Below are positions 5,770 through 63,859 of a stretch of 64,000 nt of DNA, piece after piece. Under the pieces are notes generated by a model. That model saw only the letters and a program-made list of their open reading frames with translations, was not told where the DNA came from and did no database searches. The stretch's first letter is position 1; every line of letters begins with the position of its first letter. This DNA comes from an uncultured bacterium (lineage in GTDB: Bacteria; Bacteroidota; Ignavibacteria; UBA10030; BY39). The stretch lies in contig CALCJK010000013.1 in assembly GCA_937967455.1 (NCBI GenBank), positions 6,302-70,301 on the forward strand, given 5' to 3'. The position numbers were made by a program, and so were the translations under genes.

Positions 5770-6303
5770 CTAAAAATTTTTCCACATCATTGATTCAACA
5801 GGTTTGATTGTTTTTCTGTTGTATTTAGCTGATTTCTTTTTATTATAGGGCACTTCAATGTCGCCACTAATTTCAAAGTAAATAAGCTGACCTATCGGCA
5901 TGCCTGGATAAATAATCACTGGTTGTCTTACAGAAATTTCAAGCGTCCAGGTATTACAGAATCCGACATCTCCCTTTCCTGCAGTTGCATGGATGTCGAT
6001 ACCAAGTCTTCCAATACTCGATTTACCTTCTAAGAATGGAACAAAATTATGTGTTTCAGTATACTCTTTTGTAACACCCAGATAAAGCCTCGCTGGTAGT
6101 AGCAACATTCCACTTCTTGGAATTTTTAAGTATTGAACTTTATTATGTTTTTTTGAATCAAGAATATCATCAATATAAATTGCCATCCAATCTCCGAGAT
6201 GAACATCATAGCTATTTGAACCTAAATATTTACGGTTAAAAGGCTTAATTACAATATTACCTTTTTTGATTTCACTTAAAATTTTTTTATCGGATAGTAT
6301 CAT
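5770..6303 (-). CDS. dcd: dCTP deaminase
   Basis: 177 aa. GKSSIGRLGI and AKYNRK motifs align with E. coli Dcd (GRSSLARLGL, AKYRNQ). Confidence 0.85.
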   Translation of the reverse strand: MILSDKKILSEIKKGNIVIKPFNRKYLGSNSYDVHLGDWMAIYIDDILDSKKHNKVQYLKIPRSGMLLLPARLYLGVTKEYTETHNFVPFLEGKSSIGRLGIDIHATAGKGDVGFCNTWTLEISVRQPVIIYPGMPIGQLIYFEISGDIEVPYNKKKSAKYNRKTIKPVESMMWKNF

Positions 6304-6313
6304 AAATAAAATT

Positions 6314-7234
6314 TTAATCTATAAAAGTTAACCAGCTATATGGATCTTCGCCATTGCGTACGATATTGTAAAATTTTTCCTGTACCAACCTTGTAATTTT
6401 TCCTGGTTTTCCATTATCTATTTTTTGGTGATTAATATAGCATACAGGTGTAATTTCTGCCGCTGTGCCAGTCATAAATACCTCATTTGCAATCATTAAA
6501 ATTTCTCGTGGAATTGTTGTTTCAATAACCTCAATACCTTCATCTTTTAAAATCCTGATTACAGCAGCTCTAGTTATTCCTGGAAGTATTGCATCTGCAA
6601 TAGATGGCGTGTAAACTTTTCCATTTTTCACTATAAAAATATTTTCACCGCTACCTTCACTCACATTTCCATAAGCATCTAACGCAATCCCTTCGGCAAA
6701 TCCGTTTTCAAGTGCTTCAATTTTGATCAACTGAGAACTTAAATAATTCCCACCAGCTTTTGACATTGTTGGTATTGTGTTTGGAGCTAACCTTTGCCAG
6801 GAAGAAATACAGGCTGATATGCCATTTTTTATAGACTCTTCGCCTAAATATGCTGCCCATTCCCAAACCGCTATTGCGACTTCAACTGGATTTTTTAAGG
6901 GATTTAGCCCCATTTCTCCATAACCACGATAAACTACAGGTCGAATATAACAGCTCTTCAGTTTGTTACTTTTAATGAGTTTAAAAATTACTTTTTCGAG
7001 ATGATCAATTTTAAAGGGAATTTCTGTGTGATAGATTTTTGTAGAATCATAAAGGCGTTGAAGATGTGGTCTCAATTGAAAAATTGCAGATCCTTTTTTT
7101 GTGTCATAACACCTTATTCCCTCAAACCAGCTTGAACCATAATGAATAACATGTGATAATACGTGAATTTTTGCTTCATCCCATTTTACATATTTTCCAT
7201 TCATCCAGATTGTTTTAGATTTTTTAACTGACAT
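6314..7234 (-). CDS. ilvE: branched-chain amino acid aminotransferase (class IV PLP fold)
   Basis: 306 aa. N-terminal IWMNGKYVKWDEAKIHV and the EGIRCY motif are typical of IlvE. Confidence 0.85.
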   Translation of the reverse strand: MSVKKSKTIWMNGKYVKWDEAKIHVLSHVIHYGSSWFEGIRCYDTKKGSAIFQLRPHLQRLYDSTKIYHTEIPFKIDHLEKVIFKLIKSNKLKSCYIRPVVYRGYGEMGLNPLKNPVEVAIAVWEWAAYLGEESIKNGISACISSWQRLAPNTIPTMSKAGGNYLSSQLIKIEALENGFAEGIALDAYGNVSEGSGENIFIVKNGKVYTPSIADAILPGITRAAVIRILKDEGIEVIETTIPREILMIANEVFMTGTAAEITPVCYINHQKIDNGKPGKITRLVQEKFYNIVRNGEDPYSWLTFID

Positions 7235-7242
7235 ATTTTCCT

Positions 7243-8370
7243 CTAAAAGTTTTGTTGATAGATTCTATATTTTTTGTAAAGAATAGCATTCATCATCTCT
7301 GCACTGCGGTTCATCATAATATTGTCTTCGAGTACCCAACTTGCCTCACCCCAGTCGTATCCTTGTTTTAATGCTCTTACCGCAGTTTCATAAAAAAGGA
7401 ACCCAGCAGCTCCAGTTCTTTGATATTCTTTTAAAACACCGAGAGCAATAATTCTAATACCATTTATCTGTTTTTTATTTTTAATTAATCTAAACATTGC
7501 AGGTATTAACCATCCGCTTCTGTTGTATTTTAGAATTTGGTTGATATCAGGTAATGATAGTGCAAATCCGACTGGTTTTTTGTCAACTTCAGCAATTAAG
7601 ACCAGTTCCGGATCAACTATTGATTTTAAAGATTTTGCTAAGGTATCGAATTCTTCTTGGGTCATTTTCACCGCACCCCAGTTATATTGCCAAGCTTCGT
7701 TGTAAATTTTTTCGATAATTTTTACCTCATTATCAAATTCTTTCATATTAATTGTTCTGACAGATATATGATATCTATCTTGAACAAGATTAATTACTCT
7801 TTCAATTTTTTCTTTATCGAAAATATTATGGCTCAAATAATAAGCATATAGGTCTTTTATTTTTTGAAGACCAGCACCTTCAATTAATAATGGATAATAT
7901 GGCGGATTATATGGCATCATTACAACAGGCGATTTATCAAAGCCTTCGATGAGTAATCCATATTCATCGTTTACTGAAGGGTTAGCTGGACCTCTAATTA
8001 TTGAGATTTTTCTTTCTTTTAACCATTTCTTAGCAGTGTCAAATAAACTATTGGCAACATTCTGATCGTTAATGCATTCAAAGAACCCAAAAAAGCCAAT
8101 GTTTTCGTTGTGTTCTCTATTATGATTATGGTTAATGATTGCTGAAATTCTGCCGACAATTTCATTATTTTTGTATGCAAGGAAATACTCTGCTTCTGCA
8201 TGCTTGAAAAATGGGTTTTTGTTTTTGTCGAGTAAAAATTTTCTTTCGAAAATTAAAGGTGGAACCCAATAAAAGTTTTCTTTATATATCTTCCAGGGCA
8301 GTTTTATGAATTTTTTTAAATCGGTTTTTGTTCGAACCGTCTCGATATAGAGTTCTTTAGAATATGACAT
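7243..8370 (-). CDS. GNAT-like N-acyltransferase, candidate bacterial ceramide synthase (bCerS-like)
   Basis: 375 aa. The C-terminal half has an acyl-CoA N-acyltransferase-like motif (IIALGVLKEYQRTGAAGFLFYE). It lies 13 bp downstream of the SPT-like gene in the same orientation. The function is inferred from synteny with the Caulobacter spt/bcerS/cerR paradigm. Confidence 0.5.
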   Translation of the reverse strand: MSYSKELYIETVRTKTDLKKFIKLPWKIYKENFYWVPPLIFERKFLLDKNKNPFFKHAEAEYFLAYKNNEIVGRISAIINHNHNREHNENIGFFGFFECINDQNVANSLFDTAKKWLKERKISIIRGPANPSVNDEYGLLIEGFDKSPVVMMPYNPPYYPLLIEGAGLQKIKDLYAYYLSHNIFDKEKIERVINLVQDRYHISVRTINMKEFDNEVKIIEKIYNEAWQYNWGAVKMTQEEFDTLAKSLKSIVDPELVLIAEVDKKPVGFALSLPDINQILKYNRSGWLIPAMFRLIKNKKQINGIRIIALGVLKEYQRTGAAGFLFYETAVRALKQGYDWGEASWVLEDNIMMNRSAEMMNAILYKKYRIYQQNF

Positions 8371-8383
8371 TAAGAATGACGTA

Positions 8384-9739
8384 TTAGTTTATTAGACCTA
8401 ATTTTTTCCCTACTTTTATGAAGGCATCCAGAATTTGATCTAAATGTTCATCTTCGTGGGTTGCCATATAACTTGTACGCATCATCTGCATGCCTGGTGG
8501 TACACCTGGACTAATAAATGTATTTACGAACACTCCATTGTCAAATAACTCTTTCCAGAATTTAAATGCTAGTAAATCATCGCCGATGATTACGGGTATT
8601 ATTGCTGTTTGCCCATCTATTATTTTAAATCCAGCTTCCTTAAAGCCTTTGCGCATTTTATTAGAATTTTTAATTAATTTATCTATTCTTTCAGGTTCTC
8701 TTTCTAAAATTTCTAATGCTTTTAAAGCTGCAGCTACGGATGCTGGAGTTGGGCTAGCGCTGAAAATTAATGCTGAAGAATGATGTTTGAGATAATTGAT
8801 AACTCTTTCGGAACCTACAACAAAACCACCAAGCGAGGCAAATGTTTTGCTGAAAGTTCCAAAAGTTAAATCCACTTCATCTACAAGATTAAAATGGCTG
8901 GCTGTGCCACGCCCCCCTTTGCCAATTACTCCAACAGCGTGTGCATCATCAACTAAAATTCGAGCGTTATGCTTTTTAGCTATTGAAACAAGTCGTGGTA
9001 AATCTACAATATCGCCGGTTGTACTGAAAACTCCATCAGTTACAATTAATTTTCCGGCTTCGTATGGTATGCGTTTAATAACTCTTTCAAGATCGTCCAT
9101 GTCGTTGTGTTTATATCTCACAAACTCTGCTGACATACCTCTTGCCATAATAACTCCGGCAACAATGCTTGCATGATTATCTTTGTCTGTAATTATATAT
9201 TCACCTCTCTGAACCAATGTTGGGATTATACCTTGTGCAGTTTGATAACCAGTACTGAAGAGCAGACAAGCTTCCTTTCCCATAAACTTCGCGAGTTTAT
9301 ATTCAAACTCATTGTGAAGATCCAGTGTCCCTGTTAGATATCTTGAACCAGAACAACCTGTGCCATATTTTTCTATTGCTTTTATCGCTGCTTCTTTAAC
9401 TTCGGGGTGAGCGGTTAAACCGAGATAGTTGTTTGAGCCTGCCATTATGATTTTTCGACCTTCAATTTGTACAACAGGACCTTCGTTTTCTTCAATTGGT
9501 CTGAAGTATGGATATAATCCAGCAGCTTTTACTTCATCTGCACGTGTGAAGTTGAAACATTTTTCAAACAAATCGACAGGGACTTTCTTCTCAGGTATTT
9601 TACTTTCCTTAATTTCAGTTTCTGTTGTAACTTCTGATTTATTTCTCCAATTGAATTTTCCTTTAAAAGCATTTGCCCAATCCGACATACTTTTGCGCCA
9701 ATTGAAGAAATAAGGCCTTTCTCTAAAGCGATTTGGCAT
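8384..9739 (-). CDS. spt: serine palmitoyltransferase-like alpha-oxoamine synthase
   Basis: 451 aa. A long block ([61 protein letters not shown]...RYKHND...[18 protein letters not shown]...[24 protein letters not shown]...GTFSK) is near-collinear with Sphingomonas SPT and fits it better than KBL or BioF. The PLP lysine lies in TFSK. There is a ~60 aa basic/aromatic N-terminal extension. Confidence 0.8.
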
Positions 9740-9825
9740 TTATTTTTCTCCTAAAATGCTAATTTGTTTAGAACTTTTATTTTTAATATACTTTATATAT
9801 TTCAAAAAGTCAATCAATTACAATT

Positions 9826-10806
9826 ATGAAAAAAGCATTTGTTACAGGTGCAACAGGTTTTATTGGCAGTCATCTGGTTGAAGCTCTGCTCAGTAAACAG
9901 TATAAAATTAAATGTTTAGTTAGAAAATCTGCAAATTTAAGGTGGATAAAGGATTTACCAGTTGAAATAGTATATGGTGATTTGTTTAATAAAGATGTTT
10001 TAACTGAAGCAACTAAAGACGTAGATTATATATTTCATATTGCTGGTGTAATTGCTTCTCGAACTAAGGAAGGTTATTATTATGGCAATGTTGAAACCAC
10101 CAAGAATTTGCTTGAAGTAGCATCAAAAAATTTAAATTTAAAAAGATTTGTTTTTGCAGGCAGCTTAACAGCTGTAGGTCCAGCTGCGAATAAGATACCA
10201 CCAGATGAGCAATCACCATGTAATCCGATAACAAATTATGGAAGAAGTAAACTAGAAGCTGAGAAAGAAGTTTTAAAGTTTAAAGACAAAATTCCAGTAA
10301 CAGTTTTAAGATTGCCAGCAGTTTATGGACCGCGAGATACTGCTACACTGGATTTTTTCAAAACAGTTAGTAAAGGTGTTATTCCATTGGTCGGATATAA
10401 GAGTAAATACATAAGTATACTATATGTAAGTGATGTTGTAAAGGCGTTAATTGATGCGGCAGAATGCGATATGGCTATTGGAGAAGTTTTTTTAATTGGT
10501 AGTGAAAAATTTTATACATGGGAAGAAATTGGAATGGCAATTGAAAAATATACAAAGCACCGGACTATAAAAGTTAGATTTCCTGAATTTTTTGTTGTAA
10601 TTGCAGCAGCTTTCAATAATTTTTTAGATATTTTTAGAAAAAAACCTTCTGTGTTTAATATTGAAAAGAGTAAGGATATGATTGCCGATGCCTGGATTGC
10701 AGATATTACTAAGGCAAAAAATCATCTAAATTTCAGACAAGATGTGGATTTGGAAGAAGGTATAAGGAGAACATTCGAGTGGTATCAGAAAGAAGGCTGG
10801 ATATGA
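9826..10806 (+). CDS. NAD(P)-dependent epimerase/dehydratase-family SDR reductase (candidate 3-ketosphinganine / ceramide reductase, CerR-like)
   Basis: 326 aa. Rossmann motif VTGATGFIGSHLVEALL. Catalytic YGRSK (YxxxK). Divergently transcribed from spt across an 86 bp gap. Confidence 0.65.
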   Translation: MKKAFVTGATGFIGSHLVEALLSKQYKIKCLVRKSANLRWIKDLPVEIVYGDLFNKDVLTEATKDVDYIFHIAGVIASRTKEGYYYGNVETTKNLLEVASKNLNLKRFVFAGSLTAVGPAANKIPPDEQSPCNPITNYGRSKLEAEKEVLKFKDKIPVTVLRLPAVYGPRDTATLDFFKTVSKGVIPLVGYKSKYISILYVSDVVKALIDAAECDMAIGEVFLIGSEKFYTWEEIGMAIEKYTKHRTIKVRFPEFFVVIAAAFNNFLDIFRKKPSVFNIEKSKDMIADAWIADITKAKNHLNFRQDVDLEEGIRRTFEWYQKEGWI

Positions 10807-10874: not shown

Positions 10875-11189
10875 ATGAAATTAAAGAGAAAGTATCATCA
10901 TTGGACTGAAAAAGAAATTGAGCTTTTAAAAAAGTACTGTCCAACTTATGGTGTTAAATATGCTTCGAAAAAGTTAGGCAGAAGTATAAGTACGATTCGA
11001 GCAGTTGCACACTTGCATAGAATTAAATGTAAAAACCCAACACCAGTTTGGAACCCAAAAAATGTTGAATTCTTAAAAAAATGGTATGGTAAGATAGATG
11101 CTGCAAAAATTGCTAAAAAGATTGGTACTACAAAACTTGCAGTACAAAAACATGCTAGCAGACTCGGTATTACAGGTAAAAAAAGTTGA
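10875..11189 (+). CDS. small tandem-repeat HTH-like protein (hypothetical regulator)
   Basis: 104 aa, RBS GAGGAAAG. Two ~45 aa internal repeats (WTEKEIELLKKY...SKKLGRSISTIRAVAHLHRI / WNPKNVEFLKKW...AKKIGTTKLAVQKHASRLGI). The stop abuts the hutI start codon. Confidence 0.5.
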   Translation: MKLKRKYHHWTEKEIELLKKYCPTYGVKYASKKLGRSISTIRAVAHLHRIKCKNPTPVWNPKNVEFLKKWYGKIDAAKIAKKIGTTKLAVQKHASRLGITGKKS

Positions 11190-14152: not shown

Positions 14153-15601
14153 TTAAACTTTCCAATAAACCTTGGTAAAAATTACCAAAGCTGTAAATAG
14201 TTCAAGTCGTCCTATTATCATACAAAAACTCAAAATCCATTTTCCCAAAAAATGAATGTTAGAATAGTTATCCATAGGTCCAACACTACCTAATCCTGGG
14301 CCTATATTACTCAGAGATGCTATCACCGCTCCCATTGCGGATATTATGTCCATTCCTAAAATTGTCATTATAATAGTTGCAACTACAAAAGTAGTAACAA
14401 AGAGTACAAAAAAAGCCAGAATATTATTGATGATGTCCTGTGGTACAGTTCTGTTGTTATACCTCACAGGTACGATTGCCTTTGGATGAATTAGTTTTCG
14501 AAGTTCTGCATTACCATTTTTCAGTAATATTAAAATTCTCATATTTTTAATTCCTCCAGCTGTTGAGCCAGCACAACCACCAATGAACATTAAAATAAGC
14601 AGAATAAATTGAATGGAATATGGCCAGATTTCGTAGTCAGCAGTTGAATAACCTGTCGTGGTTATTATAGATACAACTTGAAAAGCAGAATATCTTAATG
14701 CTGATGTAAATGAATTATAGTTACCAGAATTAATTAACAATAAAACTGAAATGAAAATGCTAATAAGTACGATTGATAGATAAAATACAAATTCATTATT
14801 TTTGAAATATTCTCTTACATCTCCTTTTAAAGCTTTATAATGAAGTACAAAATTGGCACCTGCAATGAACATAAAAACAATTATGACGGTATCAATGTAA
14901 GGTGAATTATAATGCGCAATACTCAAATTTCTTGTGGAGAAACCTCCTGTAGCCATAGTAGTAAAAGAATGAGATAGGGCATCAAATATATTCATACCAC
15001 CTAAAAGGAGTAGAAGTGTTTGAACAAAGGTAAACATTACATAAACTTGCCAAAGGACTTTTGCTGTTTCACCGATTCGAGGTTTTATTTTATCAACAGT
15101 TGGGCCTGGTGATTCAGCTTTGAAAAGTTGCATACCACCTACGCCCAATATAGGAAGAATAGCCAGTGAGAGCAGAATTATTCCCATACCACCCAACCAT
15201 TGCGTCATAGAACGCCAGAAGAGCAAACCTTTTGGCAGTGCTTCCACATTTGTAAGAATAGATGCCCCGGTTGTTGTAAAACCTGACACAGTTTCAAAGA
15301 ATGCATCTGTGAAAGAAGGGATTGCCCCAGATACAACATATGGAATTGATCCAAATAAACTCATAGCTAACCAGGCGAACGTGACTATAGCAAAAGCTTC
15401 ACGCGGATTTACCTCAATTTCAGGTGTTTTTAAAAAAAACCAAGTTAAAATGCCTATAACAATGCATAAAATTGATGAACCTAAAATTGGTAGCAAGCTG
15501 CTATCTGAATAGTAAAGGGAAAATGGTAATGATAAGAGCATTGCTACACCAATGAAAAAAACGATAATTCCTAATATAGAAATTACAAGCTTAATGTTCA
15601 T
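14153..15601 (-). CDS. trkH: Trk-type potassium uptake membrane protein TrkH
   Basis: 482 aa polytopic membrane protein. Repeated TTTG / GYS selectivity-filter-like segments (TTGASILT, TTGYSTAD) typical of the TrkH/KtrB family. Confidence 0.85.
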   Translation of the reverse strand: MNIKLVISILGIIVFFIGVAMLLSLPFSLYYSDSSLLPILGSSILCIVIGILTWFFLKTPEIEVNPREAFAIVTFAWLAMSLFGSIPYVVSGAIPSFTDAFFETVSGFTTTGASILTNVEALPKGLLFWRSMTQWLGGMGIILLSLAILPILGVGGMQLFKAESPGPTVDKIKPRIGETAKVLWQVYVMFTFVQTLLLLLGGMNIFDALSHSFTTMATGGFSTRNLSIAHYNSPYIDTVIIVFMFIAGANFVLHYKALKGDVREYFKNNEFVFYLSIVLISIFISVLLLINSGNYNSFTSALRYSAFQVVSIITTTGYSTADYEIWPYSIQFILLILMFIGGCAGSTAGGIKNMRILILLKNGNAELRKLIHPKAIVPVRYNNRTVPQDIINNILAFFVLFVTTFVVATIIMTILGMDIISAMGAVIASLSNIGPGLGSVGPMDNYSNIHFLGKWILSFCMIIGRLELFTALVIFTKVYWKV

Positions 15602-15603
15602 GA

Positions 15604-16947
15604 TTATTTGCTAAAAAGTTTTTCAACTTCAGGAATTGCTTTTGGGAGTGAAAATACCACAACTCTTTCATTTGGATTTATTTTTGTTGTTCCAACGGGT
15701 ATAATTACAGAATTGCTGCTCATTACACATCCAATAATTGCACCTTTTGGGAACTCTAAATCTTTAAGAGGTTTCTTTGTGATATCAGAGCCTTTTTGAG
15801 CTACTAGTTCAATTACTTCAGCATCAACTCCATGTAATGTTGCAACTGATAAAATTTGACCTTTACGGATAAATTTTAGAATTATCTGTGCAGCTGAAAG
15901 TTTTTTATTAACTGCAACATCAAGACCAATTGTGGCTGCAAGTGTTACATAGTCAGTATTTTCTACTAGTGCGATCGTTCGTGGGACACCAAGATGTCGT
16001 GCCATTAGACAGGAAATTATGTTTGTTTCCTCATCCTCAGTAACAGCAATATAAACATCCATATCCATAATGCCTTCTTTAGCAAGTAAATCTATATCCG
16101 AACCTTCACCATGAATAATTAGAGCTTTATGCAGTTTGTCTGCTAATTCTAAGGAGCGATCTTTGTTTGATTCCACAATTTTTACATTAACTTCTTCTTC
16201 TAATTTTTCAGCTACCATGCTTCCGATTCTTCCTCCACCTAAAATCATTACATTCTTAACTGATTCACCTTCCTTACCGGCAAGTCGTAAAATATCCTGC
16301 ACATATTCTGTTTTGCAGATTGCGAAAACTTGATCATTCTTTTTAAGTGTATCCTGACCTGATGGAATAATTGTACGCACACCTCTACTGATTGCAACAA
16401 TCCTGAAAACCAGTTCATCATATTCTTTAACTACATCTTGAACAGTTTTGTTGATAATTGGACTCAACGTATCTAACCGCATACCTATTATTTGAACTTT
16501 ACCGTCGCCAAATTCAAGTACATCTGTGGCAGCTGCCCTTTTAACCAGCCGCACAATTTCTTCGGCTGTTACTGCCTCTGGATTTATTGAAAGATTAATT
16601 CCAAGTTCCTCTGGTTTTACAAGAGCTTCTGAATTATTAAATTCTGAGCTGCTAATACGAGCAATTGTTCGTTTTGCGCCCAGTTTGCTTCCAATCTGAC
16701 AGGCAAGTATATTTACCTCGTCGTGAGGAGATACAGCAACCAATAGATCTGCTTCTTCAGCGCCTGCCTGCGATAGTAAAACTGGACTTATACCGCTCCC
16801 TTTATAAGCTATTACATCTAAATTTTCGTTTACTCTATTTACTCGATCTTCATCACTGTCTATTACCACAATATCGTGATGTTCCTGTGATAGAATCTTT
16901 GCTAAGTGAAATCCAACTTCACCTGCACCTACAATAATAATCTTCAA
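15604..16947 (-). CDS. trkA: Trk potassium uptake regulatory protein TrkA (two RCK/NAD-binding domains)
   Basis: 447 aa. MKIIIVGAGEVG plus a second GGGRIG Rossmann motif. Immediately upstream of trkH. Confidence 0.85.
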   Translation of the reverse strand: MKIIIVGAGEVGFHLAKILSQEHHDIVVIDSDEDRVNRVNENLDVIAYKGSGISPVLLSQAGAEEADLLVAVSPHDEVNILACQIGSKLGAKRTIARISSSEFNNSEALVKPEELGINLSINPEAVTAEEIVRLVKRAAATDVLEFGDGKVQIIGMRLDTLSPIINKTVQDVVKEYDELVFRIVAISRGVRTIIPSGQDTLKKNDQVFAICKTEYVQDILRLAGKEGESVKNVMILGGGRIGSMVAEKLEEEVNVKIVESNKDRSLELADKLHKALIIHGEGSDIDLLAKEGIMDMDVYIAVTEDEETNIISCLMARHLGVPRTIALVENTDYVTLAATIGLDVAVNKKLSAAQIILKFIRKGQILSVATLHGVDAEVIELVAQKGSDITKKPLKDLEFPKGAIIGCVMSSNSVIIPVGTTKINPNERVVVFSLPKAIPEVEKLFSK

Positions 16948-17105
16948 ATTTTCAGCATTTTCCTTAGTTTAACATATTTTTCGTTTCTAATTTGAATAAT
17001 TTTTATATAAAACGCAAATATCAACCCTCTCTTTTTATAAAAGTACTTAATTAAATAATTCTATTGATTGGTTACAGGGATTAGTCTAATATGACCTAAA
17101 ACACT

Positions 17106-18230
17106 TCAAATTTCTATTTTAACAGGTTGTGATTTCTTTTTGTTCTTTTTTAGATATTTTTGCTCTATATTATTGTTAGGTTCTGGTTCTTCTTCTACAT
17201 CAGGGTAAGTAAATATATCGTATTTATAATTTCTCAAAATTATTTGATTTCCTGCTCTACCAATTACATATTGTGGAAGTAAAGGTATTTTTCCTCCACC
17301 ACCAGGAGCATCAATTACATAATATGGAATTGCCAGACCCGATGTATGACCTCTCAATTTATCCATAATTTCCAATCCCTTACTAACAGGAGTTCGGAAA
17401 TGGTTTGCACCTTTTGTTATATCAGCCTGGTAAAGGTAATAAGGTTTTACACGAATTGTTAAAAGTTTACGCATTAGTTCGAGCATAACATCTGGGTCAT
17501 CGTTGACACCTTTCATTAAGACAGCTTGGTTACCAAGTGGAATTCCAGCATCAGCTAACAGCTCACAAGCTTTTTTAGCTTCTGGTGTTATTTCCCAGGG
17601 ATGATTAAAATGTGTATTTACGTAAATTGGATGATATTTTTTGAGCATCTTTACAAGTTTTGGAGTTATTCTCTGTGGCAATACGCAGGGCATTTTAGTG
17701 CCAAGTCGAATTATTTCAACATGTTGTATTTCTCTTAATCCCTTTAGAATTTTTTCCAGCATATAGTCGGTAAGCATAAGTGGATCACCACCAGACAGGA
17801 TCACATCCCTGACTTCAGGATGTTTGGCTATATAATCTATCCCATCTTGTATGAATTTCATTCTAATTTTGGAGGAATCACCAACTTTCCTTTTTCGTGT
17901 GCAAAAGCGACAGTACATTGAACATTGGCTTGTTGTTAAGAAAAGTACTCTGTCCGGATATCTATGCACGATACTTGGTACTGGACTATGTGAATCTTCT
18001 GCTAACGGGTCTTCAGGAAGTCCATCTTCTTCTAATTCTTTTTCAGAAGGTATACATTGAAGCCAGATTGGATCACCTGGATATCTAATCAAACTTAAGT
18101 AGTACGGATTAATTCGGATGTGAAATAATTTATTAAGTCGCTCAGCCAATTGTTCATCGAAACCAAACCTTTCTATCAAATCTTTAGCACTGTCAACGCT
18201 TTTGCGTAGCATCTCTTGCCAGAGTTCCAT
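17106..18230 (-). CDS. KamA-family radical SAM lysine 2,3-aminomutase
   Basis: 374 aa. CSMYCRFCTRKRK matches the CxxxCxxC radical-SAM motif in the KamA context (KamA CSMYCRYCTRRR). It is closer to KamA/AblA than to EpmB. Lysine-rich C-terminal tail. Confidence 0.8.
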   Translation of the reverse strand: MELWQEMLRKSVDSAKDLIERFGFDEQLAERLNKLFHIRINPYYLSLIRYPGDPIWLQCIPSEKELEEDGLPEDPLAEDSHSPVPSIVHRYPDRVLFLTTSQCSMYCRFCTRKRKVGDSSKIRMKFIQDGIDYIAKHPEVRDVILSGGDPLMLTDYMLEKILKGLREIQHVEIIRLGTKMPCVLPQRITPKLVKMLKKYHPIYVNTHFNHPWEITPEAKKACELLADAGIPLGNQAVLMKGVNDDPDVMLELMRKLLTIRVKPYYLYQADITKGANHFRTPVSKGLEIMDKLRGHTSGLAIPYYVIDAPGGGGKIPLLPQYVIGRAGNQIILRNYKYDIFTYPDVEEEPEPNNNIEQKYLKKNKKKSQPVKIEI

Positions 18231-18270
18231 TTATACCTGTTTTCCTCCATTGTTTTTATTTAACATGATT

Positions 18271-18741
18271 TTAAAAGTATTTTCCATAAACTAAAAGGTC
18301 ATCTCCAATATTATAATAATCTTTAATTCTTGATAAAATCTGATATCCCGAACTTTCGTAAAACTTTCTGGTATTTTTATATTTTTCCTGTGAAGATGTT
18401 TCAATTACAATTAATCTGCCCCCATTTTGTTTAATTTTGGTTTCTGCAAAATTTATCAATTCTTTACCGATACCTTTACCTTGTTTATCTTTTTTAACAG
18501 CGATCCAGTATAAATCAAATGTCCCGGTGGTAAGTGGAGTTGGACCAATACAAATATATCCCAGCAAATTTTCGTTATTATCTGTGGCAGAGTATATGTC
18601 GTAATCTTTTTGATTTTTATTTGTTAAATAGATATCAACAAGTTCCATTGCAACTTCAATTTCTGCTGGTGTAAAAGCCTGTGTTTCTGTAAGGAGATTT
18701 ATTAGTTGTATTCGATCTTTTTCTAAAAATTTTCTAATCAA
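18271..18741 (-). CDS. GNAT family N-acetyltransferase (candidate beta-lysine N-acetyltransferase)
   Basis: 156 aa. Acetyl-CoA binding motif QGKGIGKEL. 4 bp overlap with the upstream ATP-grasp gene. Sits between the ATP-grasp ligases and kamA. Confidence 0.7.
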   Translation of the reverse strand: MIRKFLEKDRIQLINLLTETQAFTPAEIEVAMELVDIYLTNKNQKDYDIYSATDNNENLLGYICIGPTPLTTGTFDLYWIAVKKDKQGKGIGKELINFAETKIKQNGGRLIVIETSSQEKYKNTRKFYESSGYQILSRIKDYYNIGDDLLVYGKYF

Positions 18742-19829
18742 TTTAAAATTCTTTCTATTGCAAGTTCTACTATTTTTTTAATCATTTCCTCAAATGTGTA
18801 ACCTGCTGTTCTAGCTGAACGAGCAAAACCAGCATCTGCTGAAATATCGGGATTGGGATTAACTTCGAGTATATAGAGTTTAGAATTTTTATCCAATCTA
18901 AAATCTACTCTTGCATAGTCTCTGCAGCCAATTATTTTGTATGCTTTCAAAGCTAATTCAGATATTTCGTTTGCTAATTTTTCTGAAATCGGTGCAGGAC
19001 AAACGCCTTTTGTAAATTCGTATTCATCAGTACCCTTCATCCACTTTGCATTGTATGTAATAATTCTGTGATAATTGTCAGGTAATTGCGACATATCAAC
19101 TTCTGATATTGGAAGTACAACAGGTGGATTATTACCAAGTATTGCTGCATTTAGTTCTCTGCCATCTATATATTCTTCTATAAGTGCAGGTTGCTTGAAT
19201 TTTGAAAGTATATATTCGACTTGTTTTTTCAGGCTTTCAAAGTTATAAACAACAGAATTATTGTTTATACCTACACTTGCATCTTCTCTTGATGGTTTTA
19301 TTATCAAGGGGAAGTTTAGATTCCTATCAAGTTGAAATGGTATAGATTCAACTATTTGAAATTTTGGAGTTGGAAGGTTATGATAAAGTAATATTTCTTT
19401 AACTCTTGCTTTTTGTTGAGCCAGACCGAGCGTAAAAGCGGTTGCTCCAGTATATGAAATATTTAATAATTCATAAACACCTGCTACATGCATTTCGTGC
19501 ATTGATTCGGTACCGATACTCTCACATAAATTGAAGATTACATCTGGTTTCTCGTTTTGAAGAAATTTAAAAAGTTTCTCTATATTACTGTTTACATTAA
19601 ATAAAGTTGTTTTGAATCCTGAAGAATGGAGAGCTTTTTCGATGTCCCTCATTTCGTCAACTACACCTACTTCGGAGAGGTCAACGGTGTATCCCAATTC
19701 AGATAAATTTGAATTTTGTGAAGAAACATTTAAACCAAGTTCTGAAACAAATTTTCTTTCTTCTGCATCGAGAACGGTTGGTTCGTTGTAAATAATAGCT
19801 ACGGTTAAATTTTCCTTATTTTTTATCAT
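18738..19829 (-). CDS. D-alanine--D-alanine ligase-family ATP-grasp enzyme (paralog B)
   Basis: 363 aa. Ddl-like segments DVIFNLCES...YTGATAFTLGLAQQKARVKEIL and PLIIKPSREDASVGI...EEYIDGRE. C-terminal ATP-grasp motif LEVNPNP. Confidence 0.75.
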   Translation of the reverse strand: MIKNKENLTVAIIYNEPTVLDAEERKFVSELGLNVSSQNSNLSELGYTVDLSEVGVVDEMRDIEKALHSSGFKTTLFNVNSNIEKLFKFLQNEKPDVIFNLCESIGTESMHEMHVAGVYELLNISYTGATAFTLGLAQQKARVKEILLYHNLPTPKFQIVESIPFQLDRNLNFPLIIKPSREDASVGINNNSVVYNFESLKKQVEYILSKFKQPALIEEYIDGRELNAAILGNNPPVVLPISEVDMSQLPDNYHRIITYNAKWMKGTDEYEFTKGVCPAPISEKLANEISELALKAYKIIGCRDYARVDFRLDKNSKLYILEVNPNPDISADAGFARSARTAGYTFEEMIKKIVELAIERILN

Positions 19830-19832
19830 TTT

Positions 19833-20951
19833 TTAATTAGATATAAATTTTTGAAGTATTCCATAGCGTTCTAAAGCAATATTTAAAACTTCCTGTATTA
19901 ACTGATTGTAAGACATTCCTGCAGTACGGGCAGCTTTTGGGAAACAGGAGTTATCTTCAGGTTTTGGTAAAATTCCAGGTAGTGGATTTAGCTCTATTAT
20001 ATTAGCCTTACCTTTTGAATCAAGTCGCACATCGATTCTACACCAATCGCGACATCTCATAATTGTATAAGCCTTAGTGCATACCTCTTCTATTTCATTT
20101 TGTAATGCAGGAGAAATATTAGCTGGGCATTCGAAAATATTTAATGGAGATTCAGAGTTGTCCCAGATCCATTTTGCTTCATAAGAATAGATTGGGTTTA
20201 CATTATCAGGTAATGTATCGAATTTAATTTCAACAATGGGTAGGACCCTTAAATTTTTACCATTGCCTAAGATTGCAACAGTGAATTCTCTACCATCTAA
20301 AAATTCTTCAACAAGTGCAGGTTGATTGTAATTATTTAAAACAAAATTTACTTGCTCAATTAATTCATCAAAGTTTCGGACAATAGAGGAATTGAAAATA
20401 CCTTTACTTGAACCTTCGTGTTGTGGTTTTACGATACTTGGAAATTTAGTTGATATTCCAGCTAACTGTGATAATTCGCTTATTAGCGTGAAATGAGGAG
20501 TTGGGATATTATAGTAAGAAAGGATTTCTTTGGTCCTGGCTTTATCCAGGCAAATTGATAGAGTTAATGGATCGGAGCCTGTATAAGGAATTTGGAGAAA
20601 TTCTAACATTGCTGGAATTTGAGCTTCGCGAGAACTTCCACACATCCCTTCAGCTATATTGAATACAATATCGGGTTTTAATTCCTGTAACTTTTGATAT
20701 GCAAATTTGTCTGCCTCAATTAAAGTTACATTATGTTTTTCTGCGAGTGCTCTCCTAACAGCATCAACTGTTTCAAAAGTATCCCATTCTGCATATAAGT
20801 CGGATACCTTTGTAAGTTTATTTTTCTTTAATTGTTCAGGTTCACTATCTGAACAATCATCCTTTTCAGTATGCTCGCTATGATCTTCTCTAGTATTGTC
20901 TTCCTTTTTTAAATTAAAAACGAGCGCAACATTCAACGGAAGATTTATCAA
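19833..20951 (-). CDS. D-alanine--D-alanine ligase-family ATP-grasp enzyme (paralog A) with acidic low-complexity N-terminal extension
   Basis: 372 aa. Motifs DIVFNIAEG...YTGSDPLTLSICLDKARTKEIL, PSIVKPQHEGSSKGI, EEFLDGREF, ELNPLPG. Clearly paralogous to 18738-19829. Confidence 0.75.
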   Translation of the reverse strand: MINLPLNVALVFNLKKEDNTREDHSEHTEKDDCSDSEPEQLKKNKLTKVSDLYAEWDTFETVDAVRRALAEKHNVTLIEADKFAYQKLQELKPDIVFNIAEGMCGSSREAQIPAMLEFLQIPYTGSDPLTLSICLDKARTKEILSYYNIPTPHFTLISELSQLAGISTKFPSIVKPQHEGSSKGIFNSSIVRNFDELIEQVNFVLNNYNQPALVEEFLDGREFTVAILGNGKNLRVLPIVEIKFDTLPDNVNPIYSYEAKWIWDNSESPLNIFECPANISPALQNEIEEVCTKAYTIMRCRDWCRIDVRLDSKGKANIIELNPLPGILPKPEDNSCFPKAARTAGMSYNQLIQEVLNIALERYGILQKFISN

Positions 20952-30599: not shown

Positions 30600-31628
30600 T
30601 TATTTTTCTTTTATTAGTTCATCTATTTTATTTAAAAACTTTTCTTCATTTTCAATGAATTTAACTTCAATAATTAAATAATATAATGCTATACCTTCAA
30701 ATTTATTACGAAACTTACTCAGTTTAATTGCATCCTTTTCTGTAGTAATGATAATGTCAATTTTATTTTCCTTTGATTCTGATATTATATTATTAATATC
30801 AGCTTCATTGTAGAAATGGTGATCTCTAAAAGTTTTAAATTTTTGAATAAAAATTCCAGTTTCCTTTAAAGTCCGATAAAATGATTCTGGTTTACCTATA
30901 CCACAAAATGCATAACATGTTTTAGATTTAAGTTCTTCAAGGTGAAGGATGTTGTTCTCAAAAACATTCTTTAGACCAGTTACTTTGTAAGTAAATTTTG
31001 CCTGTAGTTTATCTTTAAAATTTTTTATCACTTTCTTATCGATTTCTCCATTTGAGAATAATATAAAATCTGCTCTATTCAGTGAGTGTATCGGTTCGCG
31101 TGCAAAACCAGAGGGTAAAAGTAAACGATCTAAAAATGATCTAGAAGCATTTAAAATTACAACATCCAAATTTCTTGATAGTTTTCTGTGTTGAAAACCA
31201 TCATCTAAGATTACAAGATCCACATTATACGTGTCTTTTGCCAGTTTTGCAGCTTTATATTTGTTTTCGCTTACCAGAACGATTGCTTGAGGGAATTTCC
31301 TGGCAATTTGCAACGGCTCGTCACCGCAAACATAGGGATCGGGATTCACAATTTTTCCGTCCGATACAATAATTAAACCTCTGGATTCTCTTTTATAGCC
31401 ACGACTCACTACGGCTACTTTTATATTTTTTGTAAGTAAGTATTTCAATAAATATTCTACAATTGGTGTTTTCCCAGTACCGCCTACTGTAATATTACCA
31501 ATGGAGATGATGGGTAAATCTAAATTCCTGATTTTGAATAATCCTATATCAAAGAACAAATTTCTGATTAATATTACAAGAGTGTATATAAAACTTATTG
31601 GTAATAAAATTATGCGTATGAATATCAC
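30600..31628 (-). CDS. lpxK: tetraacyldisaccharide 4'-kinase
   Basis: 342 aa. P-loop [12 protein letters not shown] followed by VSRGYKRES. Confidence 0.85.
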
Positions 31629-31629
31629 T

Positions 31630-32751
31630 TTACAATAGGAATTTTAAAATTGATTCTGCTACTCTAATTGATGCACCAGGTTTTCCTAATTTTTTGGCAA
31701 CCATTTTTAGTTCTGAAGCAACCATATTTCTTAAATTTTCGTCTTTTAAAAATTTAGCACATTCAAATACAATATTTTTAGTACAAGCTCTGTGCTGAAT
31801 TAATTCAGGTACAATTTGTTTTCCTGCAAGAATGTTTGCCAGTCCAATGTTTTTAATTTTTATTAATAGCCTTCCTATCAAATATGTTAGAAAGGAAGTT
31901 TTATATAAAATCACCATTGGAGTATTGAAATATGCCAATTCCAGTGTTGCCGTACCAGAAGTAACAATTGCAACGTCGCAGTTTTTCATTAGATCGTATG
32001 TAGCATATTGTAATACTTTTACGCTTGATTCTTCATCTAAAAATGATTTTATATAATCACCTTCAAATACTGAAGCTGCACCTACTGCTATCTGTGCAGA
32101 AAATTCTGTTTCCAAATCTTTCGTGGCATTTAGCATAGTAGGGAAAATCTTATTCACTTCTTGATATCTACTGCCTGGAAATAATCCAATAATTGGTTTA
32201 TTTTTCTCAAATCCATACCTTTTACAAAAATCACTTCTGTTCATTGGTTGCTCTATTATATCTAGAATTGGATGGCCTACGTATTCCACGTTTATTCCAG
32301 CTTTTTTATATATTTCTTCTTCAAATTCAAAGACTACAAAAACCTTATCTACACATTTTTTAATCTTTTCTATTCTTTTAAAGTTCCATGCCCATATTTG
32401 TGGGGCAATATAATAAAATGTCTTAATTCCAGAATTGTGTGCTTTTTCTGCGAAGCGTAAATTAAATCCAGGGTAATCTATCAGCAAAACTGCATCAGGT
32501 TTTTGATGTTGTAAAATAGTATCTAATGTTTTACTAACTGATCGTATTATAGGCAGTTTTTTGATAACTTCCCACGAACCCATAATGGCAAGTTCATCGA
32601 TATGATATATTAATTTGACACCTTCTTTTTTCATCTTATCACCGCCAATGCCTGAAATTTCCAGGTCTTTATTCAAATTTTTGAGAGCTTTTACAACAGA
32701 TGCACCGTGTGTATCTCCAGAAGCTTCACCAGCTATGATAAGTAACCGCAT
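31630..32751 (-). CDS. lpxB: lipid-A-disaccharide synthase
   Basis: Likely start MRLLIIAGEASGD at 32751; the track ORF extends to 32769. The start overlaps the upstream stop by 1 nt (TAATG). Confidence 0.85.
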   Translation of the reverse strand: MRLLIIAGEASGDTHGASVVKALKNLNKDLEISGIGGDKMKKEGVKLIYHIDELAIMGSWEVIKKLPIIRSVSKTLDTILQHQKPDAVLLIDYPGFNLRFAEKAHNSGIKTFYYIAPQIWAWNFKRIEKIKKCVDKVFVVFEFEEEIYKKAGINVEYVGHPILDIIEQPMNRSDFCKRYGFEKNKPIIGLFPGSRYQEVNKIFPTMLNATKDLETEFSAQIAVGAASVFEGDYIKSFLDEESSVKVLQYATYDLMKNCDVAIVTSGTATLELAYFNTPMVILYKTSFLTYLIGRLLIKIKNIGLANILAGKQIVPELIQHRACTKNIVFECAKFLKDENLRNMVASELKMVAKKLGKPGASIRVAESILKFLL

Positions 32752-33380
32752 TATACTACCCCCGAGCAAAAAACTTGTGAAAAAAACCTAGTTTGTTGCT
32801 GATTTTGAATTAGCCAGATTATAATAACTATTATTACAATTATTAATATTGCCTGCAAAGTTCGTTTTTCGGATTTCAATCCTTTGTTCCAGTCCAACTT
32901 TGGTTGGTTTAAATTGGTAAGCTGGTATTTTCGGAAATTCGGTAAAAACTTTGGAACATAATTTTTATACTGTTTATATTCGTCACCATAAACGTTGAGT
33001 AAATGTTCTTCTTCAAGACTTACAATCATAAAGTATTGAAAGATGAAATATAAAAGTGTAATTAAAGTTAAACTTGGGAAGCTTGCGTACGACATAACTC
33101 CAACTCCTAAGTAAATAATAATGTTTCCAAGATAGAGTGGATTGCGCACATATGCAAATGGTCCGCTTGTAATTAAATTTGAACCACCAACTTCTTTAGT
33201 TGTACGTGTTTCACTTCCTGCAATTGATACACCCCATAATCTTAAAAATTCACCGAGTAGAACAAAAACAATTCCAATCAACAAACTCATTATCGTTGGT
33301 TTTGCATATAAAATCATCAAAATTAAAAAAGGAATTGGAGTATAACTGCGATATTTGAAAAGAATTTTTCTAATGTCCAT
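32751..33380 (-). CDS. membrane methyltransferase, isoprenylcysteine carboxyl methyltransferase / phospholipid methyltransferase family
   Basis: 209 aa with 4-5 TM helices. The C-terminal motif RNPLYLG...EEEHLLNVYGDEYKQYKNYVPKF is typical of the ICMT/PEMT family. Confidence 0.6.
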   Translation of the reverse strand: MDIRKILFKYRSYTPIPFLILMILYAKPTIMSLLIGIVFVLLGEFLRLWGVSIAGSETRTTKEVGGSNLITSGPFAYVRNPLYLGNIIIYLGVGVMSYASFPSLTLITLLYFIFQYFMIVSLEEEHLLNVYGDEYKQYKNYVPKFLPNFRKYQLTNLNQPKLDWNKGLKSEKRTLQAILIIVIIVIIIWLIQNQQQTRFFSQVFCSGVV

Positions 33381-33381
33381 A

Positions 33382-34104
33382 TTATCCAGATGTAAAAACT
33401 TCTCTTCTATTGAATTCAGCTTGTTGACGTTTACGTATTCTCTTGCGTTTTAAAATTTCTTCTAATCGATTTATGATATCAATGAAATTTTGGTATAGAT
33501 AGTAAGATATATTTTTTTTCTGACAGTAAGTTTGAAGTTTATCTCTTGCAAATACAATATCGGCGAAATTTACTGCACATTGATCTGAAAAACCATTCCC
33601 AATGTAAACAATTATGTCTTCATCTGATGATAAAGTTAGTAGACGATTTCTTTTACAGCAGGCACATCTTGTACATTCTTCGTCGGTATAGGGGAATTCG
33701 GCTACTAAAGTTCCGTTATCCAGAATTTTTAATTTATTTGCAAAGAATTTTAGATTTTTTATTTGATATTTTTTTAGAATTCTCTCGATGTATAAATCAA
33801 ATCCATCGCTGACTATAAATATTTCTATAACATTATCGTTTTGATTTTTTATTTTGCAGAAATTTAAGAAATCTATGAATGTTACATCTATTTCCTGTTC
33901 ATCTATGAATGAGATAAAATCTTCATACTTGACAGAACCACATGCTTTTGTTAATTCATGATAAAATTCTATTGCGTTTAATGTTCCACATAGGTAATTT
34001 TCTACGATCTTATGTGTTGGTTCACCGGCGAAATGGAGGAATAATTTATAACCTATATCTCCTTTCGATATTGTGCCATCAAAATCTATAAAAATTTTTA
34101 ACAT
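33382..34104 (-). CDS. HAD-IB family hydrolase, MtnX-like (2-hydroxy-3-keto-5-methylthiopentenyl-1-phosphate phosphatase-like)
   Basis: 240 aa. N-terminal DFDGTI HAD motif I. The Cys cluster CTRCACCKRN parallels CSNQCGCCK of B. subtilis MtnX. GNGFSD is HAD motif IV. Confidence 0.6.
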   Translation of the reverse strand: MLKIFIDFDGTISKGDIGYKLFLHFAGEPTHKIVENYLCGTLNAIEFYHELTKACGSVKYEDFISFIDEQEIDVTFIDFLNFCKIKNQNDNVIEIFIVSDGFDLYIERILKKYQIKNLKFFANKLKILDNGTLVAEFPYTDEECTRCACCKRNRLLTLSSDEDIIVYIGNGFSDQCAVNFADIVFARDKLQTYCQKKNISYYLYQNFIDIINRLEEILKRKRIRKRQQAEFNRREVFTSG

Positions 34105-63103: not shown

Positions 63104-63859
63104 ATGAATAAATTATTTGATTTAACAGGAAAAGTTGCAATAGTAACTGGTGCAAGTACTGGTTTGGGATATGGAATGAGTATTGGCCTTGCTGAAGCTG
63201 GTGCAGATATTTTGCTTGTGGATATTGTACCGAGCACTGAGACAGAACAAGAAATATTAAAGCTTGGAAGAAAGGGATTTTCGATAATTGCTGATCTTGC
63301 GCAGATGAGTTCAATTGATTTAGTGATTAACAGTGCGTTGGATAAGTTTGGGAAAATCGATATTTTAGTAAACAACGCAGGAATTATTCGTCGTACTCCT
63401 GCTATCGATTTCACTGAGAAAGATTGGGATGAAGTAATGCAAATTAATTCGAAAGCTGTTTTTTTCCTGAGTCAGGCAGCTGCAAAAGATATGATTAAGA
63501 GAAAATCTGGGAAAATAATAAATATTGCTTCGCTGTTAAGTTTTCAAGGTGGTATTCTTGTTCCGTCATATTCTGCAAGCAAAGGTGCTGTTGCGCAGAT
63601 TACTAAAGCACTTGCAAATGAGTGGGCAAAATATGGTTTGAATATAAATGCGATTGCTCCGGGTTATATGGCAACAAATAATACTAAAGCTTTGCGTGAA
63701 GATCCAGTTCGTTCAAAACAAATCTTGGAAAGAATTCCAGCTGAGCGCTGGGGAACACCAGATGACCTGAAAGGAGCTGTTGTTTTTTTGGCTTCAAAAG
63801 CTTCTGATTATGTAAATGGACATATTCTGGTGGTTGATGGTGGTTGGCTGGCAAGATAA
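63104..63859 (+). CDS. kduD: 2-dehydro-3-deoxy-D-gluconate 5-dehydrogenase (SDR)
   Basis: 251 aa, near-collinear with E. coli KduD: GKVAIVTGASTGLGYGMSIGLAEAGADI, DILVNNAGIIRR, IINIASLLSFQGG, NINAIAPGYMATNNT, DYVNGHILVVDGGWLAR. Confidence 0.85.
   Translation: MNKLFDLTGKVAIVTGASTGLGYGMSIGLAEAGADILLVDIVPSTETEQEILKLGRKGFSIIADLAQMSSIDLVINSALDKFGKIDILVNNAGIIRRTPAIDFTEKDWDEVMQINSKAVFFLSQAAAKDMIKRKSGKIINIASLLSFQGGILVPSYSASKGAVAQITKALANEWAKYGLNINAIAPGYMATNNTKALREDPVRSKQILERIPAERWGTPDDLKGAVVFLASKASDYVNGHILVVDGGWLAR

Follow-up and report, generated by a model that had tools for sequence, protein, structure and literature searches.

The closest described counterparts of the locus reported here are the ceramide pathways of Caulobacter crescentus and the sphingomonads and of Bacteroides fragilis. 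In Caulobacter, the genes encode a serine palmitoyltransferase (Spt or SPT, CCNA_01220), a GNAT-type bacterial ceramide synthase (bCerS, CCNA_01212; CC_1154) and a reductase belonging to the superfamily of short-chain dehydrogenases/reductases (SDR) (CerR, CCNA_01222; CC_1164). B. fragilis has Spt, CerS (BF9343_4218) and CerR (BF9343_4240). When cerR is deleted, both Caulobacter and B. fragilis accumulate N-acylated 3-oxo intermediates, and the B. fragilis knock-outs support acylation followed by reduction. The three genes have been predicted in many phyla by prior surveys (PMC11334938 among them), and in the Bacteroidota studied so far they are reported not to be near one another (PMC11334938). 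The related Chlorobium is known to contain sphingolipids (Jensen 1991, as cited in PMC11762602). Our search of the open-access literature found no paper linking Ignavibacteria to serine palmitoyltransferase.

Here, we analysed a 64-kb stretch of DNA from an uncultured member of the Ignavibacteria (contig CALCJK010000013.1), called the window throughout, with a G+C content of ~33%. A preliminary description, made from the sequence letters, had read three of its genes as a ceramide module of Spt, bCerS and CerR. Our analysis supports this triad, since all three families are homologous and clustered. The locus very probably encodes a bacterial three-enzyme route to the dihydroceramide backbone.

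Locus layout and the serine palmitoyltransferase homologue

The core of the locus consists of the following features:

7243-8370, minus strand: bcerS, homologue of the tandem-GNAT bacterial ceramide synthase, 375 aa, by homology to bCerS-position proteins
8384-9739, minus strand: spt, Bacteroidota-type serine palmitoyltransferase (predicted), 451 aa including a ~55-aa N-terminal extension, by its NF047600 and Sphingobacterium multivorum SPT (SmSPT) matches
9740-9825, no strand: divergent intergenic region, 86 bp, AT-rich, presumed shared promoter region, by direct reading of the sequence
9826-10806, plus strand: cerR-like extended SDR, 326 aa, predicted NAD(P)H-dependent 3-oxo-(dihydro)ceramide / 3-ketosphinganine reductase, by its Epimerase match and the CerR-position hidden Markov model (HMM)

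The coordinates, strands and lengths of the three open reading frames (ORFs; 375, 451 and 326 aa) agreed with the preliminary description. Its family calls also held, with Pfam scores of 204 bits for the alpha-oxoamine synthase (AOS; Aminotran_1_2), 34 bits for the GNAT (PF00583, a weak match) and 135 bits for the extended SDR (Epimerase). As it had described, a divergent SDR gene flanks the GNAT and AOS genes, which it read as one operon. The two share a strand and are 13 bp apart, with the GNAT gene downstream of spt, and an 86-bp spacer separates the SDR gene from the AOS gene. An identical copy of the locus was found on a public contig.

On its minus strand, the spacer contains one sigma-70-like match (9813->9785, TTGACT-17-TATATT). 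Promoter-like sites were no commoner in the spacer region than expected from shuffled sequences (24 found, 25 expected), so this match is not evidence of function. A terminator scan gave counts that were not above those of shuffled sequence.

Among the NCBIfam models, the AOS matched best the serine palmitoyltransferase (CFB) model NF047600, with 504 bits. Lower scores were obtained for TIGR01825 (393 bits, cut-off 535.4), KBL (NF005394, 384 bits, cut-off 460), BioF (TIGR00858, 375.5 bits, cut-off 426), and the betaproteobacterial (368 bits, cut-off 500) and alphaproteobacterial (312 bits, cut-off 670) SPT models. The CFB model thus led the next-best model by more than 110 bits, still under its own equivalog cut-off of 640. 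In the PDB, the best match was the SPT of S. multivorum (3A2B / 8GUH), with 403 bits and 48.7% identity over 390 aa. The Thermus KBL/BioF enzyme followed with 287 bits (KBL chains 261-287), and then the SPTs of Sphingomonas wittichii (282 bits) and S. paucimobilis (262 bits), the cysteate-C-fatty acyltransferase 28eh (246 bits) and the Alistipes SulA 7u7h (218 bits).

The preliminary description had placed the AOS much closer to Sphingomonas SPT than to KBL or BioF. This comparison failed, both on the NCBIfam models (312 versus 384 and 375 bits) and in the PDB (262-282 versus 261-287 bits for KBL). The assignment itself does not depend on it, since both searches clearly put the Bacteroidota-type SPT first. 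By homology, the 451-aa AOS is a Bacteroidota-type SPT, with serine and an acyl thioester as its predicted substrates.

The active site agrees with this assignment. In SmSPT, pyridoxal 5'-phosphate (PLP) and serine are held by N52, S81, H138, D210, H213, T241 and K244 (PMC10196870). These residues correspond to N103, S132, H189, D264, H267, T295 and K298 in the window SPT. The conserved R421 is also kept, and the PLP-binding K298 lies within a GTFSK motif.

A different reading of the locus is suggested by public annotation. A public record at least 90% identical to the AOS is named 'MAG: 8-amino-7-oxononanoate synthase [Ignavibacteriae bacterium]', that is, BioF, and an ordinary amino-acid or biotin locus would combine KBL or BioF with an SDR-type threonine dehydrogenase and an unrelated acetyltransferase. 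The partial scores of 384 and 375 bits are strong, and the neighbouring ilvE and dcd are housekeeping genes. However, both scores fall under the curated cut-offs and well under that of the SPT model. With the window SDR or the profile of its family, SDR-type threonine dehydrogenases reach only 37-67 bits, the GNAT resembles bCerS specifically, and other bio or tdh genes were not found nearby. The KBL/threonine dehydrogenase and BioF readings were rejected on these scores, and an origin of the locus in amino-acid or biotin metabolism appears extremely unlikely.

Sulfonolipid (capnine/sulfobacin) synthesis uses a parallel chemistry of AOS, reductase and N-acylation. A module of this kind would consist of a SulA/CapB cysteate-fatty-acyl transferase, a dehydrocapnine reductase and an N-acyltransferase. 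The lineage fits, belonging to the Fibrobacteres-Chlorobi-Bacteroidetes (FCB) group, and the cysteate acyltransferases are detectable homologues of the window AOS (28eh 246 bits, 7u7h 218 bits). The S. multivorum SPT, with 403 bits, nevertheless scores far over them. In addition, Lys281 of SulA was proposed as a marker separating cysteate acyltransferases from Spt, which has Ala (PMC9304779). The corresponding residue in the window SPT is A328, and it is Ala in the alignment with SmSPT, the S. wittichii-type SPT and all aligned relatives. A cysteate synthase was not found in the window. On the Lys281/Ala criterion and the scores, the sulfonolipid reading was rejected, and we regard it as very improbable.

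The window SPT carries a basic and aromatic N-terminal segment of ~55 aa (NWRKxMxDWAxxFKGxFNW). It was found in the closest relatives only (P0124, P0127 and L005) and is missing from the 77%-identical SPT homologues of loci L002 and L003. This extension may serve as a membrane-association segment.

The GNAT and reductase homologues

For comparison of the GNAT and the SDR with characterized proteins, the S. wittichii SPT was mostly rebuilt from the PDB 2X8U alignment and used to scan a genome collection. This yielded 80 sphingomonad spt loci, retrieved with 10-kb flanks. In S. wittichii, CerR is Swit_3897, AcpR 3899, Spt Swit_3900, LptF2 3905, LptG2 3906 and bCerS Swit_3908, the last with 45% identity to Caulobacter CC_1154 (PMC11324152 Table S2B). 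One of the retrieved loci (L007), with an SPT 94% identical to that of S. wittichii, encodes in order an SDR, one ORF, an acyl carrier protein (ACP), SPT, a histidine kinase, three ORFs, LptF, LptG, a fatty-acid hydroxylase and a GNAT. This order reproduces the Swit numbering, and the positions of bCerS and CerR could be read from it.

The window GNAT matched solely the GNAT at the bCerS position, one per locus, in 27 of the 80 sphingomonad loci. In the remaining loci without a match, either the locus was incomplete or the gene lay past the 10-kb flank. By BLASTP, identities to the bCerS-position proteins were 33-39% over the full length, with 86-232 bits, the lowest scores coming from ORFs cut at locus ends. 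An HMM built from 21 bCerS-position proteins matched the window GNAT end to end (292 bits, E 2e-91). Profile alignment with hhalign gave a probability of 100% and an E-value of 8.5e-82 over 370 columns of 375 residues, with 35% identity. The GNAT therefore stands as a bCerS candidate on these three comparisons, as the preliminary description had suggested.

A structural model predicted with AF2 (pLDDT 86, pTM 0.86) had a tandem-GNAT fold. Tandem GNATs with 9-13% identity, among them glucosamine N-acetyltransferase and MshD, were its nearest Foldseek neighbours. The C-terminal GNAT half contains the acyl-CoA motif Q317-x-x-G320-x-A322. The window GNAT had zero matches among the NCBIfam models and in the PDB sequence search. 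The sphingomonad bCerS-position proteins likewise have no NCBIfam match, and the empty NCBIfam search therefore says nothing on membership. The family is large, with more than 7,400 matches. Their names go no further than 'GNAT family' or 'hypothetical', and most come from metagenome-assembled genomes (MAGs) of Ignavibacteria or Bacteroidota. Membership of the window GNAT in the bCerS family is well supported by these alignments, and N-acylation is its predicted activity.

In locus L007, a gene of the fatty-acid hydroxylase family (18137-18901) lies directly upstream of the bCerS-position GNAT and overlaps it, in keeping with sphingolipids whose acyl chains are hydroxylated. Near the window module, no gene corresponding to this hydroxylase was found.

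The SDR carries the nucleotide-binding motif TGxTGFxG (TGATGFIGS) and an S113/Y138/K142 triad (Y138xxxK142). Both are invariant in the Ignavibacteria and the sphingomonad CerR-position sequences. Its N-terminus leads directly into the Rossmann motif, as in sphingomonad CerR; the CerR of Caulobacter is periplasmic and associated with the inner membrane. The SDR matched one ORF per locus in 46 of the 80 sphingomonad loci, at 21-32% identity over the full length. The matched ORF was always the SDR 1-2 kb upstream of spt, the position of Swit_3897 and CerR.

Profiles were compared from both sides. With the sphingomonad CerR profile, the full-length match of the window SDR reached 152.7 bits. The best solved chain (9g83_P) scored 96 bits, NDUFA9 59-72 bits and the GDP-sugar 4-epimerase 8rdg 49 bits. 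The window-side profile, built from 42 Ignavibacteria-type SDRs, gave the CerR-position proteins a median of 140 and a maximum of 160 bits. Its top solved match was 3wj7 (135.5 bits, end to end), and 8rdg (PMC12171764) followed closely with 134 bits in a match ending at residue 245; NUEM/NDUFA9 scored 66 bits. The alignment of the two families by hhalign had a probability of 100% and an E-value of 3.7e-61 over 304 columns.

The preliminary description had called the SDR a CerR and NDUFA9-like, and only the first part found support. CerR is matched end to end and linked to spt and bcerS, whereas NUEM lies far below the leading solved matches (66 versus 134-135 bits). NDUFA9 was not among the top 60 matches of a single-sequence SDR search. 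NUEM/NDUFA9 are the top PDB matches of sphingomonad CerR, unlike those of the window SDR. The preliminary description had named outcomes that would count against its reading, among them a GNAT lacking homology to bCerS-type GNATs and an SDR clustering with threonine dehydrogenases or sugar epimerases. In the comparisons made here, neither was seen. The 3WJ7 'putative oxidoreductase' is also among the top matches of sphingomonad CerR, and among solved structures it may offer the closest template for reductases of the CerR type.

On the window side the margins are narrow, and similarity alone therefore does not single out CerR. The SDR could be a nucleotide-sugar epimerase or a reductase of another kind, unrelated to spt and bcerS and beside them only by chance, with the 3-oxo reductase encoded elsewhere. 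The scores of 8rdg and 3wj7 come near the CerR median, the NCBIfam HpnA model gives the window SDR 147 bits, and one 5.46-Mb genome (L086) has a 50%-identical SDR homologue that is unlinked from spt and bcerS. Against the epimerase reading, the 8rdg match stops at residue 245 while the CerR match runs end to end. The CerR profile separates the window SDR clearly from the best solved chain and from 8rdg, and the linkage to spt and bcerS persists across three gene orders (see below). We consider a chance neighbour quite improbable. Because the epimerase is nearly as close on the window side, the CerR call rests largely on the conserved and rearranged gene neighbourhood. The assignment of the SDR as a CerR homologue holds end to end, more weakly than in the case of the GNAT, and a reductase role is predicted.

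Gene neighbourhood, predicted pathway and adjoining genes

Related loci were reached by look-up from GNAT homologues at 59-65% identity and SDR homologues at 47-50%. The arrangement SDR<>AOS-GNAT, with unrelated outer flanks, was present in seven independent look-up loci (L002-L005 and L087-L089). A metagenome scan with a GNAT alignment recovered 80 loci, with GNATs 46-60% identical. A divergent SDR adjoined spt-bcerS in 24 of 49 metagenome loci. When only the 38 well-flanked loci were counted, an SPT-like AOS was present in 29, and both AOS and SDR, hence all three families, in 25.

Three gene orders occurred among the metagenome loci, namely SDR<>AOS-GNAT, SDR-AOS-GNAT and SDR..GNAT-AOS. The SDRs of the rearranged loci were 31-33% identical to the window SDR and 30-33% to sphingomonad CerR; judged by these identities, they bridge the two groups. 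The three families thus stay linked across rearranged and diverged loci, as a shared pathway predicts. Clustering of spt, bcerS and cerR outside Bacteroidia has been described (PMC11334938), and the neighbourhoods of the window clade agree with it.

In L086, the unlinked SDR homologue is followed by genes for a penicillin-amidase-family protein and a CMAS-like methyltransferase (6001-10268). In L003/L004, a penicillin-amidase gene (15252-17122) lies ~6 kb from the module.

In the proposed pathway, Spt, with PLP on Lys298, would condense L-serine with a long-chain acyl thioester to 3-ketodihydrosphingosine (3-KDS). The tandem-GNAT bCerS homologue would then acylate the amine of this product from acyl-CoA, giving 3-oxo-dihydroceramide, and the extended SDR would reduce the 3-oxo group with NAD(P)H to dihydroceramide. 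The homology of the three proteins, their intact catalytic motifs and their co-localisation, both conserved and rearranged, speak for this pathway. The substrates, the sequence of acylation before reduction and the production of ceramide are predicted by analogy with the genetics of Caulobacter and B. fragilis, and so are head groups.

The same enzymes could act in the eukaryote-like order, in which the SDR, as a 3-ketodihydrosphingosine reductase (KDSR), reduces 3-ketosphinganine to sphinganine before the GNAT acylates it. The bacterial order is debated, and reduction first was proposed by Olea-Ozuna et al. B. thetaiotaomicron possesses a 3-KDS reductase, BT_0972, and Caulobacter bCerS was reported to take both 3-oxo-sphinganine and sphinganine (PMC11324152 supplementary text). 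The sequence features of the window locus fix neither order. The intermediates that accumulate in the cerR deletion mutants speak against reduction first. Moreover, BT_0972 is a classical SDR of ~31 kDa, whereas the window SDR is an extended one, and the sole classical SDR in the window is KduD. The latter (63104-63859, plus strand) had been considered as a BT_0972-like KDSR and was dismissed, as it scored 388 bits on the KduD model against a cut-off of 339. Reduction before acylation is unlikely here.

Several points weigh against a ceramide pathway at this locus. The AOS scores under the curated cut-off of the CFB SPT model (504 < 640). The identities of bCerS and CerR rest on sphingomonad positional orthologues and not on the Caulobacter or B. 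fragilis sequences. The SDR is about equally similar to CerR and to solved enzymes other than CerR (3wj7 135.5, 8rdg 134 bits), with 147 bits on the NCBIfam HpnA model, and it has a 14-aa insert before YxxxK that sphingomonad CerR does not have. Nine of the 38 well-flanked GNAT loci carry neither an AOS, so no SPT nearby, nor an SDR. No ACP, acyl-ACP synthetase or LptF2/G2 gene was found in the 64-kb window, whereas the sphingomonad and Caulobacter clusters have dedicated ones. The literature search found no lipid or enzyme data on the window organism or any Ignavibacteria. A search of the window for Lpt paralogues, ceramide kinase and head-group transferases also found none. With these points included, the three-enzyme route to dihydroceramide keeps the high probability given at the outset.

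Two further genes follow on the strand of the GNAT gene:

6314-7234, minus strand: ilvE, branched-chain amino acid aminotransferase, by NCBIfam ilvE equivalogs above cut-offs
5770-6303, minus strand: dcd, dCTP deaminase, by a match above the curated cut-off

The ilvE gene, which scored 416 and 405 bits on two NCBIfam ilvE equivalog models, starts 8 bp downstream of bcerS, and dcd follows 10 bp past it. In the window, dcd is probably co-transcribed with spt-bcerS-ilvE. Its place is taken in related loci by a Usp gene or by different genes. Wherever a look-up locus reaches far enough (L001-L004 and L087-L089), the gene after that of the GNAT is an Aminotran_4 gene. The same holds for 24 of 67 metagenome loci, all of them with a GNAT identity of 52% or more. 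Co-oriented as it is in this clade, ilvE would probably supply branched-chain 2-oxo acids that prime iso/anteiso acyl chains, and it is reasonable to infer, by analogy, that these branched-chain primers are used for sphingolipids.

A bolder interpretation takes the unit of this clade to be a four-gene module, cerR<>spt-bcerS-ilvE. In it, ilvE would be dedicated to iso/anteiso primers for both the sphingoid-base and the N-acyl chains, and the SPT, normally a soluble enzyme, would be anchored to the membrane by its N-terminal extension. On this view, the FCB group would have had the compact cluster as its ancestral arrangement, and Bacteroidia would have scattered it later. Taken as a whole, we consider this interpretation possible but doubtful.

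On the other side of the module, 68 bp downstream of the SDR gene, a 104-aa ORF (10875-11189, plus strand) had two weak GcrA/Myb-like helix-turn-helix matches, which at 24 bits stayed below the cut-off. This ORF does not recur as a conserved neighbour of the SDR gene in other loci.

Outside this locus the window is ordinary chromosome, with lpxB, lpxK, plsY, gpsA, recG, smc and ppdK among its genes. A four-gene run (17106-20951, minus strand) encodes a KamA-family radical-SAM aminomutase, a small GNAT and two tandem D-Ala-D-Ala-ligase-like ATP-grasp enzymes. The aminomutase scored 483 bits on the AblA lysine 2,3-aminomutase model (cut-off 525) and 431 bits on that of glutamate 2,3-aminomutase; the ATP-grasp enzymes scored 166-200 bits, below cut-offs. 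The genes of this run suggest a cluster whose product is a beta-amino acid or an acetylated or ligated dipeptide, perhaps a compatible solute. At 30600-34104 (minus strand), lpxK and lpxB are followed by genes for a PEMT/ICMT-type methyltransferase and a HAD-IB MtnX-like phosphatase. The methyltransferase has a weak similarity to the lipid A 1-phosphate O-methyltransferase of Leptospira, LmtA (62 bits against a cut-off of 325), and together with the phosphatase it may tailor lipid A.

Comparison with known systems

The result is a sound annotation of a known ceramide pathway in an unstudied lineage, and no new system or mechanism. It extends the genetically defined bacterial ceramide pathway to a lineage of the Ignavibacteria, and it corrects a likely public mis-annotation, the labelling of a close SPT relative as BioF. 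The locus is a minimal, contiguous three-gene version without dedicated ACP or transport genes, which makes it convenient for heterologous reconstitution and for addressing the disputed question of whether acylation or reduction comes first. The linkage to ilvE across the clade is a testable lead on branched-chain sphingolipid supply.

At the level of single enzymes, the window SPT shares all PLP- and serine-binding residues with the S. multivorum SPT and differs from it by the extra N-terminal segment of ~55 aa. SulA and CapB share the AOS fold, the parallel chemistry and the broad lineage, with lower scores (218-246 versus 403 bits) and Lys281 in place of Ala. The tandem GNATs 5KF1 (glucosamine N-acetyltransferase), MshD 1OZP and MAB_4324 match the predicted fold of the window GNAT with TM scores of ~0.56-0.61. 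The amine that they acylate sits on a sugar or an acceptor resembling an amino alcohol, and their sequence identity to the window GNAT is 9-13%.

The Caulobacter and sphingomonad pathway has the same three families, also clustered, and the same predicted chemistry. Relative to the sphingomonads, the GNAT is ~35% identical end to end and the SDR 21-32% identical end to end. The window SDR has the 14-aa insert and is not NDUFA9-like by sequence, in contrast to sphingomonad CerR. The window SPT is of the Bacteroidota type and not the alphaproteobacterial one (504 versus 312 bits). The three genes are immediately adjacent in the window, whereas they are spread over ~12 kb in Caulobacter and the sphingomonads. 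The window module also differs from these clusters in having a co-oriented ilvE and no adjoining AcpR, AasR, LptF2/LptG2 or head-group genes.

Of the major lineages, that of B. fragilis (FCB group) is the closest, and its SPT is of the same subtype. A module without a dedicated ACP, acyl-ACP synthetase and LptF2/G2 resembles the situation in Bacteroidota. In contrast to the Bacteroidota studied so far, spt, bcerS and cerR are contiguous in the window.

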